Of a DNA stretch of 64,000 nt, positions 40,515 to 55,536 are shown piece after piece. Under the pieces are notes generated by a model. The model saw nothing but the letters and a program-made list of their open reading frames with translations, searched no databases and was not told where the DNA came from. Origin of the DNA: an uncultured Actinomycetes bacterium (GTDB lineage: Bacteria > Actinomycetota > Thermoleophilia > UBA2241); the NCBI GenBank assembly GCA_963709345.1, contig CAVPVX010000007.1, positions 544,001-608,000 on the forward strand. Direction: 5' to 3'. Position 1 is the first letter of the stretch. The number at the start of each line of letters is the position of its first letter. A program made the position numbers and the translations under genes.

Positions 40515-41279
40515 TCAGCTCGGCGTCGTCGTGAGCGTCGTGATGTCGATGCGGTTGGCGGGGTCGATGGTGCGGTAGTACCAGTTGCCGCTCGCCGCAT
40601 CGTAGACGAGGTTCCAGTTGAGCTGGTTCGTCAGTACGCGGACCTGCCCCAGCGACTCGGTGACGGTCATGACGTAGCCGGCCGACGGACGCCCCTGCAG
40701 CGTCGCGCCGACCGGCTTGTAGAGGACGCGGTCGATGGGCTCCGAGTACTCCGCCGGGTCCAGCCCGAGATCGGTGTAGCAGTAAGGCGCCCACACGCGA
40801 GGCCACCTGCCGTCGGTGGCGCAGTAGTCGCGCATGAGCGCGATGAGGTCGCCGCTCACGGTGGCGAAGCCGGAGGAGGGAGACGCGGGATCGCCCGGGA
40901 TCGCGAAACCGCCGTCGCTCAGCCGGCCGATGAGGCAGTACGCCGGCGCCGCCGCGACGTAGCTGGAGGAGCCGGGGCTCGCCGCCGCCGAGTACTCCAT
41001 GAGTCCTGCGCCGAACGGATCGCGTGGCCACACGTCGACGTAGGTGCCCCTCAGGACGTCGAGGCTGCCTCTGGGCGGGTACGTGTCGTCGTCGACCGCG
41101 TAGGTCCTCACCCCGACCCGGATGGCATGGACGCCCTCCTTGACGGCGGCGTCCTTGGCCTTGTCTCTCTGCGTGAGGTACATGGGTGTCGCGATCGCCG
41201 CGAGAATCCCCACGACGATGACGACGATGAACATCTCGATGAGAGTGAAGCCGTCTCGCCGTCTCGCCGCTCTCGACAT
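40515..41279 (-). CDS. Type IV pilin/pseudopilin-like protein
   Basis: Class III signal RRDG|FTLIEMFIVVIVVGILAAIATP; SD GGAGGT. Confidence 0.88.
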   Translation of the reverse strand: MSRAARRRDGFTLIEMFIVVIVVGILAAIATPMYLTQRDKAKDAAVKEGVHAIRVGVRTYAVDDDTYPPRGSLDVLRGTYVDVWPRDPFGAGLMEYSAAASPGSSSYVAAAPAYCLIGRLSDGGFAIPGDPASPSSGFATVSGDLIALMRDYCATDGRWPRVWAPYCYTDLGLDPAEYSEPIDRVLYKPVGATLQGRPSAGYVMTVTESLGQVRVLTNQLNWNLVYDAASGNWYYRTIDPANRIDITTLTTTPS

Positions 41280-41324
41280 CACCTCCCCCCCATGGTCCTG
41301 GGTCTTCAAGCCTCCTGGACCAGG

Positions 41325-41350
41325 CATCGACAGATGACCGGCCTTCTTGC
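41325..41350 (-). promoter_or_regulatory. Sigma28 (FliA/WhiG)-like promoter of the pilin gene
   Basis: GCAAG-N14-GTCGATG, about 45 nt before the start codon. Confidence 0.4.
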
Positions 41351-41475: not shown

Positions 41476-42816
41476 TCAGCTCAGGTGATCTTCGATGAAG
41501 TGCGTGTTCACGTCGCCGGCCATGAACAGCGGGTGATCGAGCACCACGCGGTGGAACGGGATCACGGTCTTGACGCCGTCGACGAGGAACTGGTCGAGCG
41601 CCCAGCGCGAGCGCGCGAGACACTCCTCGCGGTCGCGCCCCCAGACGATGAGCTTGCCGAGCAGGCTGTCGTAGAACGGAGGGACCATGTAGCCCTGATA
41701 CACGTGGCTGTCGAGGCGCACCCACGGACCGCCGGGCGGGATCCACTGCGTGACGACACCCGGCGACGGCATGAAGCCCTGCGCCGGGTCCTCGGCGTTG
41801 ATGCGGAACTCGATGGCGTGGCCCTCGAGCGCGATCTCTTCCTGTCGCAACGGCAGCCCCTCGCCGGCGGCGATGCGGATGCCCGTCTTGACGATATCGA
41901 CGCCGCTGACCATCTCGGTGACGCAGTGCTCGACCTGCACACGCGTGTTCATCTCCATGAAGTAGAAGCTGCCGTCGCCGTCGAGCAGGAACTCGACGGT
42001 GCCGGCGCCCTCGTAGTGCGCCGCCACCGCGGCGGCGACGGCGGCGTCGCCCATCTGCCGACGCAGCTCCGGCGTCACCGCCGGCGACGGCGCCTCTTCG
42101 ATGAGCTTCTGGTGGCGCCGCTGGATGCTGCAGTCGCGCTCGCCGAGGTGCACGCCGTGGCCCTTGCCGTCGGCGAGCACCTGGATCTCGATGTGGCGCG
42201 GCGCGCCGATGTACTTCTCGACGTACACGGCGCCGTTCCCGAACGCGGCCTCCGCCTCAGCTTGCGCCTGACGCACGGCGCCGGCCAGCTCGGATTCCTC
42301 CTTGACGATGCGGATGCCCTTGCCGCCGCCGCCGGCGGACGCCTTGACCATGACCGGCAGCCCGATGTCACGGGCGACGACCTCAGCCTCGGCGGCGGTC
42401 TCGATGGTGCCCTCCGAGCCCGGCGTGACGCGCACGCCGGCGGCGGTCATCGTCGCGCGCGCCGCCGCCTTGTCGCCCATGAGGTCGATGCTCTCCGGCG
42501 ACGGACCGATGAACTTGACACCCTGCTCGCGGCACAGGCGGCTGAACTCGGCGCGCTCGGCGAGGAACCCGTAGCCGGGGTGGATCGCCTCGGCGCCCGT
42601 CTGCAGGGCCGCCTGGACGAGCACCGGCATCACGAGATAGCTCTGCGCGGCCGGCGCCGGGCCGATGCACACCGCCTCGTCGGCGTACCTGACGTGCAGA
42701 CACTCCTCGTCGGCCTCGCTGTAGACGGCGACGGTGGCCACGCCGAGCTCACGACAGGCGCGGATGACGCGGATGGCTATCTCGCCACGGTTGGCGATGA
42801 GGACCTTGGTGAACAT
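41476..42816 (-). CDS. accC: Biotin carboxylase
   Basis: KVLIANRGEIA, HPGYGFLAE, GGGGKG, EMNTRVQVEH and RINAED. Own extended -10 TGCTATAAT at 42851-42843. Confidence 0.95.
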   Translation of the reverse strand: MFTKVLIANRGEIAIRVIRACRELGVATVAVYSEADEECLHVRYADEAVCIGPAPAAQSYLVMPVLVQAALQTGAEAIHPGYGFLAERAEFSRLCREQGVKFIGPSPESIDLMGDKAAARATMTAAGVRVTPGSEGTIETAAEAEVVARDIGLPVMVKASAGGGGKGIRIVKEESELAGAVRQAQAEAEAAFGNGAVYVEKYIGAPRHIEIQVLADGKGHGVHLGERDCSIQRRHQKLIEEAPSPAVTPELRRQMGDAAVAAAVAAHYEGAGTVEFLLDGDGSFYFMEMNTRVQVEHCVTEMVSGVDIVKTGIRIAAGEGLPLRQEEIALEGHAIEFRINAEDPAQGFMPSPGVVTQWIPPGGPWVRLDSHVYQGYMVPPFYDSLLGKLIVWGRDREECLARSRWALDQFLVDGVKTVIPFHRVVLDHPLFMAGDVNTHFIEDHLS

Positions 42817-42945
42817 GCACACTCCTTGCCGACGGTCGCCGGATTATAGCAATGACCGAGGTCGCCGCCCGACCTGCCGCCGGCGCGCCCGCGGCCGCAG
42901 GCGCCGGGCGTTGCCAGGAAGCGTAACGCTTTGGCCCGGCGGACC

Positions 42946-42972
42946 CTCATGCGCCGGCCCCCGCTGCCGATA
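42946..42972 (+). promoter_or_regulatory. Sigma28 (FliA/WhiG)-like promoter
   Basis: CTCA-N16-GCCGATA (equivalently TCATG-N14-GCCGATA). Confidence 0.55.
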
Positions 42973-42977
42973 CCCAA

Positions 42978-43130
42978 GTCGAGACCGGGTAGGACAACTC
43001 ACCGGGCTACGGCCCGGCATCTCATCCTCTCTCTCAGCCGGGCCGGTCTCCTTCGATAGACACACGGACAGCCCGCATCCGAGTGAAGGCCCCCGCCGGC
43101 CCGGCGCTCTTCTCTTCCTCTTCTCCTCAC
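42978..43130 (+). ncRNA. Candidate structured RNA E1 (sRNA or leader of the pilus ATPase gene)
   Basis: GAGACCGG(42981)/CCGGTCTC(43043) stem; cUACGg tetraloop hairpin at 43002-43017; two CU-rich tracts. Confidence 0.45.
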
Positions 43131-43234
43131 GGCAGACGCCACGGCGTCGCGACGTCCACCCGCAACCCGCCGGCGGCCCTCGCAGACGAAGGTCGATGCG
43201 CTACACTAGCTCCGCGACCCGGCGGGAGGTACGA

Positions 43235-45271
43235 GTGCCCAGCGCGACCAAGAAGACTCTGGCGATCATCGACGACGACACCGAACTGCTCGACGAGCTG
43301 TCCCGGGCGTTCGCTCTCAAGTACAGGATCGTCGCCGATCCCGGCGACCCGGGCACACTGCGCCTGCTGCAGGACAAGGCGCCGGCGGCGATCATCCTCG
43401 ACCTCGACCTCGGTACCTTCGACCCGTTCGAACTGCTCCGCCTCATCTCCGGCGACTCCGGCCTTCGCGGCACGCCGATCCTCGTGCTCGCCTCGGACGG
43501 CGACTTCTCGACCTTTGAGCACGCGCACCGCATCGGCGCCTCCGAGTTCGTCACCAAGCCGTTCGCTCCCGACGAGCTCGGCCACAAGCTCGACGCACTC
43601 ATCAGCGGCCGCACGCAGCGCGCCGCCGGGCGCCTCAAGCTGGGCGCGCTCCTCGTCGCCAGCGGCCTGGTCACCCAGGGGCAGCTCGACGGCGCCCTCG
43701 AGCGCCAGCACGACGGCGGCGGACGCCTCGGCGAGGTGCTGGTGGCCGAGGGGCTCGTCGACGAGCAGGACATCGTCAGCGCCGTCGCCGGCCAGATGCG
43801 CATCGGCGTCATCGATCTCGCCCACACCAGCCCCCAGCCGGCCGCACTCGGCCTGCTGCCGCGCGACTTCATCGTGCGCCGCCGACTGATGCCGGTCAGC
43901 ATCGACGACGACAGCCTCGTACTGGCGATGACCAACCCGCTGGACGTGATCTCCATCGACGAGGTGGGCATGCGCACCAAGAAGCGCATCGTGCCCGCCA
44001 TCTGCTCCGAATCCGGCTTCGACGAAGCGGTCGCGATCTACTTCAGCTCGCGCGGCAAGCTCAAGGACGCGCGCGACGAAGACGAGGAGGGGGCGCCGTC
44101 CGGCGACCTCGACGCCGACACCATCGAGCTCGTCGACAGTCTGCTCACCGACGCGGCCAGCATGGGCGCCTCGGACATCCACCTCGAGCCGCGCGAGGAC
44201 TCCTTCGTCGTGCGCTGCCGCATCGACGGCGTGCTCCACGAGCTGCGCGAGTTCCCCAAGGACTGGCAGGCCGGCATCACGAGTCGCCTGAAGATCCTGG
44301 GCAACCTCAACATCGCCGAACGCCGGCTGCCCCAGGACGGCCGCGCGTCGTTCGAGCTGTCGAGCGGCGAGGCGGTCGACCTGCGCCTCGCCTGCATCCC
44401 GAGCATGTACGGTGAGAACATCACGATCCGCATCCTCGAGGTGTCGGCGCTGCCGCCGACGCTGGCGTCACTAGGACTCGTCGGCGACAATCTCGCGCGC
44501 TTCGAGAAGGCCTTGAAGGCGCCGGAGGGCGGCATCGTCATCGTCGGCCCCACCGGGTCGGGCAAGTCAACCACGCTGTACACGACGCTCGAGCTCATCA
44601 AGTCGCCCGAGCGCAAGATCTACACCGTCGAGGACCCGGTCGAGCGCAAGATCGACGGCATCATCCAGACGGAGATCAAGCCGGCGATCGGCCTCACCTT
44701 CGCCCAGGCGCTCCGGGCGCTCGTGCGTGCCGACCCGGATGTGATCATGGTCGGCGAGATCCGCGACCTCGAGACCGCCAAGATGGCCGCCGACTCGGCC
44801 GTCACCGGTCACCAGGTGTTCAGCACCCTGCACACCAACGACGCCTCGGCAGCGGTCAACCGCCTCGTCGAGATGGGCGTCCCGCGCTATCTCGTCGCCG
44901 CGGCCTGGCGCTGCTTCGTCGCCCAGCGGCTCGTGCGCCGCCTCTGCCCTCACTGCCGGGAGGCGGCCACGCTCACCGACCGGAAGTGGGAGGATCTCGG
45001 CCTGGGGCCGGCGCCGCGAAAGCGGCTCAAGATCTACAACCCGGTCGGCTGCGCCAAGTGCTTCGGCACCGGCTACCGCGGGCGCGTCGGCCTCTACGAG
45101 GTCCTGGTGGTCGACGACGACCTGCGCGACCTCATCGCCACCGGCGGGAGCGTGCTCGAGATCCAGCGTCTGGCGCGCGGCATGGGCGTCGCTTCGCTCC
45201 GCGATGACGGCGTGGCCAAGGTCCTCGACGGGGCGACGAGCTACCTCGAGTTGCTGCGCGTCACCGTGTAA
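43235..45271 (+). CDS. Receiver-MshEN-GspE/PilB family pilus/secretion ATPase
   Basis: REC (IIDDD, ILDLDL, TKPF); tandem KLG/RLG MshEN motifs; ASDIHLEP, GPTGSGKST, EDPVE, GEIRD, STLHTN and tetracysteine motif. SD GGGAGG and -10 TACACT. Confidence 0.9.
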   Translation: MPSATKKTLAIIDDDTELLDELSRAFALKYRIVADPGDPGTLRLLQDKAPAAIILDLDLGTFDPFELLRLISGDSGLRGTPILVLASDGDFSTFEHAHRIGASEFVTKPFAPDELGHKLDALISGRTQRAAGRLKLGALLVASGLVTQGQLDGALERQHDGGGRLGEVLVAEGLVDEQDIVSAVAGQMRIGVIDLAHTSPQPAALGLLPRDFIVRRRLMPVSIDDDSLVLAMTNPLDVISIDEVGMRTKKRIVPAICSESGFDEAVAIYFSSRGKLKDARDEDEEGAPSGDLDADTIELVDSLLTDAASMGASDIHLEPREDSFVVRCRIDGVLHELREFPKDWQAGITSRLKILGNLNIAERRLPQDGRASFELSSGEAVDLRLACIPSMYGENITIRILEVSALPPTLASLGLVGDNLARFEKALKAPEGGIVIVGPTGSGKSTTLYTTLELIKSPERKIYTVEDPVERKIDGIIQTEIKPAIGLTFAQALRALVRADPDVIMVGEIRDLETAKMAADSAVTGHQVFSTLHTNDASAAVNRLVEMGVPRYLVAAAWRCFVAQRLVRRLCPHCREAATLTDRKWEDLGLGPAPRKRLKIYNPVGCAKCFGTGYRGRVGLYEVLVVDDDLRDLIATGGSVLEIQRLARGMGVASLRDDGVAKVLDGATSYLELLRVTV

Positions 45272-45359
45272 CGCCGAGCGCGACGCCGTCGCCCGCGCCG
45301 GCTACGCTCCCACGGTCTCCCTAGACGCCTGTACCATACGTGCCCGGCACGGCCGGTCG

Positions 45360-45448
45360 ATGCCATGAACAGGAGACCGGAAGTGGCCTGAGAGAGGACC
45401 TTCCCAGTCCACCACAAGACTGGTCGGCGGCGCAAAGCGGGGGCTTGC
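45360..45448 (-). ncRNA. Candidate structured RNA E2 with a sigma28-like promoter, related to E1
   Basis: GCAAG-N15-GCCGAC (45448-45423), then hairpin GACTGGGAAG..TCCTCTCTCAG..CTTCCGGTCTCCT, sharing two motifs with E1. Confidence 0.4.
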
Positions 45449-45513
45449 ACCGCCGGCCGTTCCACGTACGTAGGCCGGCGCCCGCGGCCGGCCTCCGCGC
45501 CCGACGATGCAGG

Positions 45514-45533
45514 ATACCCCCGGTGGGTATACT
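45514..45533 (+). promoter_or_regulatory. CsoR operator overlapping the copA -10
   Basis: ATACCCCCGGTGGGTAT pseudo-palindrome (ATACC..GGTAT with G/C tracts) overlapping TATACT. Confidence 0.8.
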
Positions 45534-45568
45534 CGATATGGGTGCAACGTCGACACGCCCAAGAAGTG

Positions 45569-48037
45569 ATGGACGACCACGAGATCACGATAGAACTGCC
45601 GATCACCGGCATGACGTGCGCCAGTTGCGTGGCGAGGACCGAACGCGCCATCGCCAAGGTCGACGGCGTCGGCACGACCGCCGTCAACCTCGCCACCGAG
45701 AAGGCGACCGTCAAGTTCGACCCGCACGCAGCCTCCACCGGCGACCTGGTCGCAGCCGTCGAGGGCGCAGGCTACGGCGTCGTCACGGCCCGAGCGACCA
45801 TCCCGATCATCGGCATGACCTGCGCCAGCTGCGTCGCCCGCGTCGAGCGCGCCCTGAGCAAGCCTCCGGGCGTGCTCTCGGCAGACGTCAATCTGGCGAC
45901 CGAGAAGGCGACCGTCACCTACGTCGCCGGGCAGGCGACCTACGACGATCTCGTCTCCGCGGTGCGCGGCGCCGGGTATGAGGTCGCCCCGGCGGAGGCG
46001 GGCGAGGGCGGCGCCGCGACGGCGGTGACCGCCGAAGAGGCGGCTCGAGCCGCCGCCTACCGGCGGCTGAAACAGAAGGTCGTCGTCGGCTTCGTGCTCA
46101 GCGTCGTGATCTTCGTCGGCACCATGCAGCCGCACTGGTTCCCCTTCCTGCCGGAGTGGCTGCACAACGGCTACCTGCTCTGGGCCCTGGCCAGCATCGT
46201 CCAGTTCTGGGTCGGACGGCAGTTCTACACGACCGCCTGGTCGGCGCTGAAGCACGGCACCACGACCATGAACACCCTCGTGGCCATGGGGTCGTCGGCG
46301 GCCTACCTGTACAGCGTCCTGGGCGTCCTCTTCCCCGCCTTTTTCGCGCATCAGGGCCTCGGCGAGCCGATGTACTTCGACTCCTCGGCGTTCATCATCA
46401 CCCTGATCCTGCTCGGCCGGCTGCTCGAGGCGCGTGCCAAGGGGCAGACCGGCGCCGCGATCAAGGCGCTGATCGGGCTGCAGCCGCGCACGGCGCGCGT
46501 GGTGCGCGACGGAGCCGAGGTCGACGTCCCGGTCGCGGAGGTGCTCGTGGGGGACCACGTGGTCGTGCGCCCCGGTGAGCGCGTGCCGGTCGACGGCATC
46601 GTCGAGCACGGGGCGTCGCCGGTCGACGAGTCCATGCTCACCGGCGAGTCCATCCCGGTGGCCAAGGGCGCCGGCGACGAAGTCATCGGCGCCACCATGA
46701 ACACGACCGGTTCCTTCACCTTCACGGCGACGCGCGTCGGCTCCGAGACGGCGCTGGCGCAGATCATCAGGCTGGTCGAGCAGGCGCAGGGCTCCAAACC
46801 GCCGATCGCGCGGCTCGCCGACGTCATCGCCGCGTACTTCGTGCCGGCGGTGATCGTCATCGCCACCGTCACGCTCGTCGTCTGGCTGCTGCTCGGACCC
46901 CCGCCCGCGCTCAACTACGCCCTGCTGAACTTCGTCGCGGTCCTCGTCATCGCCTGCCCCTGCGCCCTCGGCCTGGCGACGCCGACGGCGATCATGGTCG
47001 GCACCGGCAAGGGCGCCGAGAACGGTGTGCTGATCCGAGACGGCGGCGCGCTGGAGACGGCCCACAAGCTCGACGCCGTCGTGCTCGACAAGACCGGGAC
47101 GATCACCGAGGGCAAGCCCCGTGTGACCGACGTCGTCCTGTTCGGCGCCGAGGACGGCGACGCGCCCCCCGGCGGCCTGGACGACGACGGTCTACTGCGC
47201 CTGGTGGCGGCCGCCGAACGCGGCAGTGAGCATCCACTGGCGGCGGCGATCCTCGCCGCCGCCGCCGAGCGCGGGGTCGACGTGCCCGCGGCGAGCGGCT
47301 TCGAGGCGATCGCCGGCCACGGCATCCGCGCCGAGGTCGACGGCCACACCGTCGTGGCCGGCAACGAGCGGCTCGCGGGAACCGCCGCGGCGGGATTCGT
47401 GCAGCGTCTTGCGTCCGACGGCAAGACCGTCGTGACCGTCGTCGTCGACGACGAACCGGTCGGAGCCATCGCCATCGCCGACACGGTCAAGCCGAGCTCG
47501 GCGGCTGCCATCGGCCGCCTCAGGCGGCTCGGCCTCGAGGTCGTGATGCTGACCGGCGACCACCGCCGCACGGCGGAGGCGATAGCCGGTCAGGTCGGTA
47601 TCGACCGCGTGGTGGCCGAGGTCCTGCCCGGGCAGAAGGCGGCCGTAGTCGCCGAGCTGCAGGGCGAGGGCAGGCGGGTGGCCATGGTGGGCGACGGCAT
47701 CAACGACGCTCCGGCGCTGGCGCAGGCCGACGTCGGCATCGCCATCGGCACGGGCACCGACGTCGCCATGGAGGCCAGCGACGTCACGCTCATGTCGGGC
47801 GACCTTGGCGGAGTCGCGACGGCCATCGAGTTGTCGCGAGCGACGATCCGCACCGTGAAGCAGAACCTCTTCTGGGCGTTCGCCTACAACGTCGCCTTGA
47901 TACCGCTGGCGGCGGGCGTCTTCTACCCGTCGTTCGGTATCCTGCTCAATCCCATCTATGCGGCGGCCGCAATGGGCCTGAGCAGCGTCACCGTGGTCAC
48001 CAACAGCCTCCGGCTGCGGCGCTTTCGCGCCGACTGA
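45569..48037 (+). CDS. copA: Copper-translocating P1B-type ATPase
   Basis: Two GMTCASC HMA domains; [21 protein letters not shown] and MGLSS. Confidence 0.95.
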
Positions 48038-55446: not shown

Positions 55447-55536
55447 TGGTGCCGGAGCCGGGACTCGAACCCGGACGCCGCACATGGCGACAGAGGATTT
55501 TAAGTCCCCGGCGTCTACCAGTTCCGCCACTCCGGC
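55447..55536 (-). tRNA. tRNA-Leu (anticodon UAA), CCA encoded
   Basis: GCCGGAG acceptor stem, D-loop CTGGTAGAC, anticodon loop CTTAAAA, long variable arm and GTTCGAGTC; -10 TATACT at 55550-55545. Confidence 0.96.

Follow-up and report, generated by a model that had tools for sequence, protein, structure and literature searches.

Why does the gene of a type IV pilus ATPase carry the same short non-coding motif at both of its ends, once on each strand? The question is raised by a stretch of 64,000 nucleotides (nt) from an uncultured Actinomycetes bacterium of the class Thermoleophilia (assembly GCA_963709345.1, contig CAVPVX010000007.1, positions 544,001 to 608,000; the whole stretch is called the window hereafter), in which two elements, E1 and E2, lie on either side of a gene encoding a PilB/GspE-type ATPase. 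An earlier note on this DNA had read them as sibling small RNAs (sRNAs) facing each other across the gene. That reading is probably wrong, and the 'twins' are more likely lock and key: with moderate confidence, we consider E1 and E2 to be a cognate pair, in which E1 would be a small RNA and E2 a complementary 3' untranslated region (3'UTR) or decoy, i.e. two different RNAs of the same (plus) strand, complementary to each other. The sequence anatomy of both elements, their conservation, their complementarity and their co-occurrence are direct observations.

The motif reads TCCTCTCTCTCAG-CCGGG-CCGGTCTCCT in E1 (43025-43052, plus strand) and TCCTCTCTCAG-GCCACTT-CCGGTCTCCT in E2 (45398-45371, minus strand); direct reading of the window places these 28-nt motifs exactly where the earlier note had located them, with the same two blocks in the same order. 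The combined pattern has 2 matches in the window versus 0.00 expected (100 shuffles) and no further copy elsewhere in the 3.11-Mb genome (69.5% G+C). Searching the genome and its relatives, as the note had proposed, returned this single pair, and the strict pattern CTCTCTC-N2-16-CCGGTCTCC was present in 49 of 54 genomes of the genus (the reversed pattern gave 2 matches), and wherever one contig has both kinds of match, an E1-type and an E2-type copy face each other at a distance of 2.2-4.8 kb.

Read on the ATPase strand, E2 carries AGGAGACCGG...CUGAGAGAGGA, the complement of CCGGUCUCCU and UCCUCUCUCAG of E1, and the complementarity of both helices is kept in 38 of the 38 genomes having both elements. 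The local E1-E2 duplex of this genome reached -42.2 kcal/mol, compared to -28.5 ± 4.2 kcal/mol for shuffled sequences; among the 38 genomes the median was -38.75 kcal/mol (range -43.5 to -33.7, median z -3.5), and in 37 of them at most 5 of 100 shuffles were as good, a count that implies no probability, the genomes being related and not independent. The duplex of the whole sequences (-71.4 kcal/mol, equal to the shuffle mean) was uninformative, and co-folding and local duplexes were used. Inside the first seed of E2, 3 genomes have G in place of A opposite U and 3 genomes have U in place of C opposite G, both of which leave a G-U pair; the resulting strings (GAUCGG in 3 genomes, GGCCGG in 3 genomes) would be mismatches for a sibling RNA acting on the same target as E1, where the same changes read U to C and G to A on the minus strand and would break the shared pairing while keeping the pairing with E1. 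Pair-breaking changes of E2 are found at the end of the seed-1 helix, and the linker and flanks of E2 are variable. The genus mostly combines E1 ..CAG with E2 CUG.., and the sister genus combines E1 ..CUG with E2 CAG.. in 6 of 6 cases. By the criterion used for an sRNA and its sponge, both conserved complementarity and pair-preserving substitutions were found, within the limits that E1 is near-invariant and the genomes are related.

In the mechanism that we propose, E1 would be a small RNA or terminated leader of ~134 nt, made from a sigma-28/WhiG-like promoter and ended by an intrinsic terminator, and would expose the pyrimidine-rich UCCUCUCUCUCAG...CCGGUCUCCU, a segment that we take to resemble an anti-Shine-Dalgarno sequence. 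E1 would repress the ribosome-binding sites of target mRNAs, GAGAGAGG-type sites being the candidates. E2 would be the 3' untranslated end of the pilus ATPase mRNA, probably also made alone from a promoter of the CCGAT(A/G) type directly behind the stop codon, and its unstructured 5' part would pair with E1 by two helices (~8-10 and 8-11 base pairs). Either as the end of the ATPase mRNA or as a free RNA, E2 would then be a Shine-Dalgarno-like decoy titrating E1 when the ATPase message is abundant, and this titration would couple other genes to ATPase expression. The parts of E1 and of the ATPase gene to which the argument refers are the following:

42946-42972, plus strand: E1 promoter-like element, CTCA (42946-42949), 16 nt, GCCGATA (42966-42972)
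42981-43114, plus strand: predicted E1 RNA, ~134 nt
42981-42988, plus strand: 5' end of E1, GAGACCGG
43002-43017, plus strand: UNCG-capped hairpin of E1 (loop UACG here, C-G closing pair)
43025-43052, plus strand: CU tract and CCGGUCUCCU of E1 (UCCUCUCUCUCAG, CCGGG, CCGGUCUCCU), overlapping the 5' arm of the E1 terminator
43065-43081, plus strand: small inner hairpin region of E1
43037-43047 with 43095-43105, plus strand: long terminator stem of E1, GCCGGGCCGGU..CCUUCG pairing with UGAAGG..GCCGGCCCGGC
43106-43118, plus strand: U-rich tail of E1
43191-43210, plus strand: second promoter-like block, GTCGATG then TACACT, ~35 nt before the ATPase start
43224-43229, plus strand: ribosome-binding site of the ATPase gene, GGGAGG
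43235-45271, plus strand: ATPase gene, 678 amino acids, with receiver, MshEN and T2SSE (PilB/GspE-type) domains

The sigma-28-like promoter that had been proposed for E1 is supported, as a sequence motif, by the alignment: GCCGATA is invariant and CTC(A) nearly so in 20 of 20 genus sequences, and GCCGATA sits 8 nt before the GAGACC of E1. The consensus of sigma-28 (FliA/WhiG) promoters is a GCCGATAA-like -10 element with a TAAA -35 element ~15 nt upstream; the -10 elements fit it (GCCGATA in E1, CCGAT(A/G) in E2), and the -35 elements do not (CTCA in E1, another block in E2). The arrangement CTCA-N16-18-GCCGATA was found at 16 sites in the genome, among 224 GCCGATA sites, where a rough composition estimate gives ~2 by chance. 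Several of these sites precede genes encoding pilin-like, HD-GYP-like (named by eye), receiver-LuxR, NlpC/P60-like and other secreted proteins, and may be a candidate sigma-28/WhiG-like regulon with an unusual -35 element; examples are C9:23198, C7:708340, C4:301840, C1:268602 and C7:691253 (contig and position). A FliA/WhiG-type sigma gene is present in the genome, read in two frames in the assembly.

The alignment of 41 sequences from three genera has 99.4% of its cells paired, with two-sided changes at three pairs, all of them in the 43002-43017 hairpin; the terminator is invariant, and the U-G and G-U pairs are possible on the plus strand only. The cUACGg hairpin of the earlier note is this covarying hairpin, whose loop is of the UNCG type in 13 of 20 genus sequences. 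The E1 motif itself (43025-43052) is nearly invariant in 38 genomes. A covariance model (R1), of the kind that the note had suggested for its supposed family, gave 165.2 bits for E1 and found one copy in the genome; E2 fell outside it. The mutually exclusive pairings that had been noticed are also real possibilities of the sequence: GCCGGG (43037-43042) is complementary to 43013-43018 and also to 43095-43105, and an alternative helix of the 5' end GAGACCGG with CCGGUCUC is 91.2% paired, its pairs 4-6 changing mostly in the wobble manner; pairs 5 and 6 have two unpaired cells apiece. A terminator scan made a second call in E1, a small terminator-like hairpin with a T-run at 43094-43106.

Is E1 a gene of its own, or the leader of the ATPase gene? 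It could be a cis-acting attenuator or riboswitch-like leader, in which the GAGACCGG-CCGGUCUC closing helix competes with the terminator and a ligand or protein decides between them, E2 being a plain 3'UTR with its terminator. The mutually exclusive pairings fit such a leader, as does the extreme conservation of the unpaired E1 nucleotides in the 41 sequences, which is of the kind seen in ligand-binding RNAs. The MshEN domain binds cyclic di-GMP, and E1 lies upstream of a gene for an MshEN-domain protein; moreover, E1 occurs without E2 in three loci. Against this, the ATPase gene has a separate promoter-like block (GCCGAT(G/A)CGCTA(G/C)ACT) that is conserved in an alignment of 19 sequences, and the interval between the E1 terminator and this block varies in length (30-110 nt) and sequence in the same 19 sequences. 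We therefore regard E1 as a separate unit, from which transcription may still run on into the ATPase gene. No known riboswitch family, cyclic-dinucleotide riboswitches included, nor any other Rfam family, matched E1 at E <= 10, and a leader leaves the two E2 blocks complementary to E1 in 38 of 38 genomes unexplained. We consider the leader unlikely. At the level of sequence, E1 has the features by which a small-RNA gene is recognised, i.e. its own promoter-like element, an intrinsic terminator and intergenic conservation. The block before the ATPase gene contains, in relatives, the string CTAGAC (43205-43210), which is also found upstream of E2.

If E1 is a small RNA, from which strand would E2 be made? 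E2 consists of the following parts:

45321-45362, plus strand: conserved block upstream of E2, CTAGAC (45321-45326), GTACCAT (45331-45337), 18-nt spacer, GTCGATG (45356-45362)
45371-45474, plus strand: E2 on the ATPase strand, 3'UTR, possibly a 3'UTR-derived small RNA
45371-45380, plus strand: E2 seed 1, AGGAGACCGG
45388-45398, plus strand: E2 seed 2, CUGAGAGAGGA, with a variable linker between the seeds
45422-45458, plus strand: terminator-like hairpin of E2, loop GCGGGGG, tail GUUCCACGUACG
45371-45398, minus strand: E2 as minus-strand motif, UCCUCUCUCAG, GCCACUU, CCGGUCUCCU

Transcription from the plus (ATPase) strand appears fairly likely, on several grounds. E2 starts within ~50-100 nt of the ATPase stop codon, and always just past this stop, whatever its far neighbour. 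The TAG inside the cTAGac of the conserved upstream block serves as the ATPase stop codon in several genomes, so the ATPase mRNA must run into E2. Conservation reaches upstream on the plus strand into the CCGAT(A/G) box, also in the sister genus, and ends on the far side after the hairpin, beyond which nothing is shared in the sister genus. The plus-strand alignment folds into a first unpaired region of ~55 nt and a 15-pair hairpin with 4 covarying pairs; an unpaired 5' region followed by a 3' hairpin is the usual shape of a seed-plus-terminator small RNA. In an alignment of 40 sequences, 27 cells at 6 hairpin positions hold G-U pairs that work only on the plus strand, and three sister-genus hairpins read by eye have G-U pairs on the plus strand only (5 cells).

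The region upstream of E2 was compared in 54 distinct sequences (40 genomic and 16 metagenomic matches, duplicates removed). GT[ACT]C[CT]AT was found in 54 of 54 and TAGAC in 52 of 54; the -10-like box NCGAYN was present in all 54 (CCGATG 26, CCGATA 19, TCGATG 4, CCGACA 3, CCGATT 2), 8-12 nt before GAGRYC (10 nt in 42), and the distance from GT[ACT]C[CT]AT to this box was 19-20 nt in 52 of 54 and 18 nt in the present genome. The sister genus has, on the plus strand, CTAGAC..GTCCTATG, 17-19 nt, CCCGATAC, 7-11 nt, GAGACC.., CAGAGAGAG and the hairpin; the -10-like box and its distance of 8-12 nt from GAGACC are similar to those of E1. The conserved TAGAC..GT(T/C)C(T/C)AT block (45321-45337) is in part a palindrome (TAGA..TCTA), possibly an operator or else a -35 region of unusual type; no second copy of it was found in the genome, and no operator regulon. 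Beyond the hairpin, an 8-nt block, CACGTACG (45463-45470), is kept in most of 19 genus sequences and is not shared by the sister genus. On the far side, most members of the genus have a gene ending ..SEGKARRVIDxRP*, presumably the C-terminus of a phenylacetate-CoA-ligase-type enzyme, that converges on the hairpin, and the E2 hairpin may well serve as a two-way terminator for convergent genes.

In the sibling interpretation, E2 would be transcribed from the minus strand towards the ATPase gene, and both RNAs would use the same CU-rich and CCGGUCUCCU seeds against the same Shine-Dalgarno-like targets. The order of the motif blocks and their near-identical sequence speak for it, as do some wobble pairs that work on the minus strand, both in the first hairpin (U-G in 11 of 19 sequences) and in the stem that surrounds the CU tract. 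E1 and the minus strand of E2 further have an 8-mer, GCCCCCGC, in common (by a rough estimate frequent by chance at 69.5% G+C), and the alignment with ar7 (RF02342), weak at 23.9 bits vs 60 (E = 0.09) and the best sub-threshold Rfam match on either element, puts C-rich loops in two minus-strand hairpins. However, the two elements are not homologous siblings, because the R1 model gives 5.6 bits (E = 1.5) on the E2 region compared to 165.2 bits on E1, and no cross-match was found between E1 and E2 (blastn, word size 7), the short bipartite motif being all that they have in common. The sigma-28-like promoter that the earlier note placed upstream of E2 on the minus strand did not hold up, since no promoter is conserved there in the genus loci and the CCGAT(A/G) box is on the plus strand; most genomes have a coding gene ending 30-60 nt upstream on the minus side, and the present one has the divergent copper ATPase gene. 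No terminator follows on the minus strand. The hairpin that was to hold the CU tract of E2 in its loop exists in part of the genus (helix 2, 86.2% paired, no double changes); neither the diverged members of the genus nor the sister genus retain it. Overall, with the evidence favouring E2 on the plus strand, we regard sibling sRNAs as rather unlikely.

Several points nevertheless weigh against a cognate pair. Some concern the strand of E2: in the 40 sequences, 20 cells at 4 hairpin positions (14 of them at one) contain G-U pairs possible on the minus strand alone; a position of the hairpin that would be C-A on the plus strand reads U-G on the minus strand (11 sequences in the alignment of 19, 14 in that of 40); and the local stem UUGGAAG/CUUCCGG around the CU tract has wobbles on the minus strand only. 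The alignment folds of 19 genus-only sequences (-24.5 kcal/mol on the minus versus -32.1 kcal/mol on the plus strand) slightly favour the plus strand and are not decisive. The U-tract after the E2 hairpin is weak (GUUCC / UUCAC), and an independent promoter of E2 is uncertain, its -35 region being unlike that of E1 (GT(T/C)C(T/C)AT at 19-20 nt versus CTCA at 16 nt). Others concern the pairing. The two-sided covariation between E1 and E2 comes down to one position and essentially to one lineage split, the E1 motif hardly varying, and the CAG/CUG rule has exceptions (G012, G001, G011 and L111). Full-length co-folding gained only -8.4 kcal/mol, with 8 of 100 shuffles equal, a modest gain because the E1 terminator must open. 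The same conservation is also expected if E1 and E2 bind a common third partner. As for extended targets of E1, only ~6 of 23 GAGAGAGGA sites precede a possible start codon, and no regulon was definable from them; nearly all GGAGACCGG sites look coding (Glu-Thr-Gly), with few before a possible start. Transcription, the strand of E2, the pairing and its consequence are all points that we infer.

The segment of E1 to which E2 would bind overlaps the 5' arm of the terminator, so that E1-E2 pairing could lower termination at E1. This allows a variant of the cognate pair, which we hold to be improbable, in which the E2 RNA, produced as the end of the ATPase mRNA, would prevent termination of E1 in trans, within an RNA-only positive feedback loop. 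E2 would pair with the CU tract and CCGGUCUCCU of nascent E1 before the 3' arm of the terminator is made, read-through from the sigma-28-like E1 promoter into the ATPase gene would yield more E2, and the loop could make pilus-motor expression bistable. The 5' end of E1, GAGACCGG, would mimic the 5' end of E2 and be a weak built-in antiterminator.

How widely, and how regularly, do E1 and E2 occur together? The blocks flank the ATPase gene in two sister genera of one Thermoleophilia family, and E1 is also found in one further genus. By BLAST, the E1 region was detected in 22 of 24 genus genomes and the E2 region in 21 of 24; of 16 genomes taken from other families of the class, none had the E1 region. 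Across a class sample of 401 genomes, the strict pattern was present in 44 of 48 genomes of the genus, 9 of 11 of the sister genus (E1 type only) and the one genome of the further genus (1/1), and in none of the 11 and 3 genomes of two other genera of the family; 11 matches among 321 genomes outside the family were set aside as chance, the reversed-pattern control matching in ~7, and so was a third motif copy inside a methyltransferase-like frame (named by eye) of genome G063. A covariance model of E2 (R2) gave 103.1 bits in this genome and detected E2 in 48 of 53 other genus genomes, in 10 of 13 sister-genus genomes and in 0 of 22 genomes of other genera of the family, usually once per genome and adjoining the ATPase gene.

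Pattern and model together found both elements in 45 of the 53 other genus genomes and neither in 4; the sister genus had both in 9 of 11 and neither in 2. E2 without E1 was seen only in two genomes that are 53% and 63% complete. One genome has a variant E1, found by BLAST (G019), and another a weak E2 of 27.9 bits (G048). The three loci with E1 and no E2 (L061, L137 and L108) imply a role of E1 that does not depend on E2. This distribution agrees with a primary RNA, E1, that is modulated by E2. A metagenome scan with an 18-mer of E1 yielded at least 120 loci, of which 80 were examined: 19 are E1 by the R1 model, 16 of them with E2, and the remaining 61, unrelated sequences that seem to be mostly coding, were discarded. 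Orthologues of the ATPase occur in 81 of 89 family genomes; with the ATPase gene so much more widespread than E1 and E2, the two elements are a lineage-specific addition to an older gene. The ATPase matches the Pfam families T2SSE (2.1e-119), MshEN (6e-19) and Response_reg (2e-12).

The same regularity bears on explanations at the level of DNA, in which the blocks would be inverted protein-binding sites (a repressor or roadblock past two promoters) or recombination sites inverting the ATPase gene. The inverted arrangement around one gene, with each copy just downstream of a promoter-like element, would suit such sites, and the partly palindromic TAGA..TCTA upstream of E2 looks operator-like. 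However, the half-motif spacers differ (5 vs 7 nt) and that of E2 varies freely, unlike recombinase cores; the orientation is fixed, with accC divergent upstream of E1 in 22 of 23 E1 loci (the other two genera included) and E2 lying on the strand of the ATPase gene in all 38 genomes compared; the genes next to the locus are accC and a copper ATPase gene, the recombinase search having covered these immediate neighbours; and wobble-type substitutions and UNCG loops point to RNA. We therefore consider DNA-level sites highly improbable. An invertible segment or mobile inverted repeats were rejected for the single pair per genome, its fixed order and orientation and its differing spacers. Insertion-sequence or other mobile-element ends and decayed repeats were likewise rejected, with one pair per genome in the fixed order accC / E1 / ATPase / E2; this single-copy synteny also argues against the decayed inverted repeats of a mobilisation event that the earlier note had kept as its alternative. 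E1 and E2 are not ordinary terminator or repeat debris.

Nor do E1 and E2 belong to a described RNA family. Rfam 15 (4227 models) was run at gathering thresholds on the window and at E <= 10 over 42000-46500; at gathering thresholds the only match in the whole window was a tRNA (55450-55536), in line with the claim that these are undescribed elements with RNA-type signatures. The 6C RNA (RF01066), considered for its C-rich loops, reached at best 19.4 bits (cut-off 47), at a site in another part of the genome. Full-text literature matches for Thermoleophilia and small RNA contained no small RNAs of this kind.

Among known systems, the closest in logic is perhaps that of SroC, a sponge derived from an mRNA that titrates the sRNA GcvB (PMC4474525). 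E1 and E2 are like GcvB and SroC in that E1 has a conserved seed and E2, derived from an mRNA, has the seed complement and could sequester E1. They differ in that the E2 decoy is the 3' end of the gene directly downstream of E1, the pair bracketing a single gene; in that the complementarity is bipartite, with a variable linker, and overlaps the terminator arm of E1 itself; and in that the host is a Thermoleophilia actinobacterium and the pair is known from sequence alone. A second comparison is icaR of Staphylococcus aureus, where the 3'UTR motif UCCCCUG pairs with the ribosome-binding site of its own mRNA and creates an RNase III substrate (PMC3868564). Unlike in icaR, the pyrimidine motif lies upstream, in E1, and the purine-rich Shine-Dalgarno-like strand lies in the 3'UTR; the E1 unit ends at its own terminator ~120 nt before the ATPase start codon, and the ATPase ribosome-binding site is outside the E1-E2 pairing. 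The hbs mRNA of Bacillus subtilis reportedly has base pairing between its 5' and 3' untranslated regions. Common to icaR, hbs and the present locus are a conserved segment of the 3'UTR that complements a segment on the 5' side of its gene, and the Shine-Dalgarno-like or anti-Shine-Dalgarno-like character of one of the two strands.

Small RNAs of the DapZ/MicL type are derived from 3'UTRs and share the terminator of the parent mRNA. E2 resembles them in the -10-like box just after the stop codon, the single-stranded 5' seed and the terminator shared with the upstream mRNA, and differs from them in that its predicted partner is a small RNA or leader 2.3 kb upstream instead of a set of mRNAs, and in that its promoter is inferred. 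RsaE is said to be a C-rich/CU-rich anti-Shine-Dalgarno sRNA; like 6C, ar7 and RsaE, E1 has pyrimidine-rich unpaired stretches that could pair with G-rich ribosome-binding sites. E1 differs from all three in having no sequence or structure match with them, ar7 matching only on the minus strand of E2.

Outside the pair, two genes adjoin the locus:

41476-42816, minus strand: accC, biotin carboxylase gene, upstream of E1 and divergent
45571-48037: copper-type P-type ATPase gene, downstream neighbour of E2

The copper ATPase neighbour is peculiar to the GCA_963709345.1 genome and not general in the genus. A perfect inverted repeat, ATACCC-N5-GGGTAT (45514-45530), lies ~40 nt upstream of this gene and presumably resembles the operators of CsoR-type copper repressors. 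Beyond the biotin carboxylase gene, 1.5 kb from the pilus ATPase gene, an open reading frame (40515-41327, minus strand) carries a prepilin N-terminal methylation motif (Pfam N_methyl, 1.9e-05). The best sigma gene of the FliA/WhiG type (G000:C7:51093-51771, minus strand, L083 ~1072-1908) is outside the window and is split between two frames, its pieces scoring 142.3 and 117.4 bits compared to a whole-model cut-off of 189.6; the split is either a true frameshift or an assembly error, and a tyrosine-recombinase-like gene (named by eye) adjoins it. In three metagenome-assembled relatives (L006, L016 and L021) the matches to the biotin carboxylase gene fall into two or three pieces that differ in frame; because this gene is broken in all three, frameshift-type assembly errors seem common in assemblies of the genus, a point of relevance to the split sigma gene.

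E1 and E2 would be two new candidate RNA families, both well delimited, of a little-studied, widespread soil and sediment lineage. Their layout is unusual, with an sRNA gene at one end of the ATPase gene and the complement of the sRNA's seed at the other, this seed being also an arm of the sRNA's own terminator. As a point of method, a short inverted motif in non-coding DNA can be the trace of complementarity within one strand, and not of two copies of an RNA. If the pairing is true, the locus would be a compact model for mRNA-tail decoys or for RNA-controlled termination; and for the organism, the promoter-like elements suggest a possible regulon in which the type IV pilus ATPase may be tied to a sigma-28/WhiG-like set with pilin-like and HD-GYP genes.

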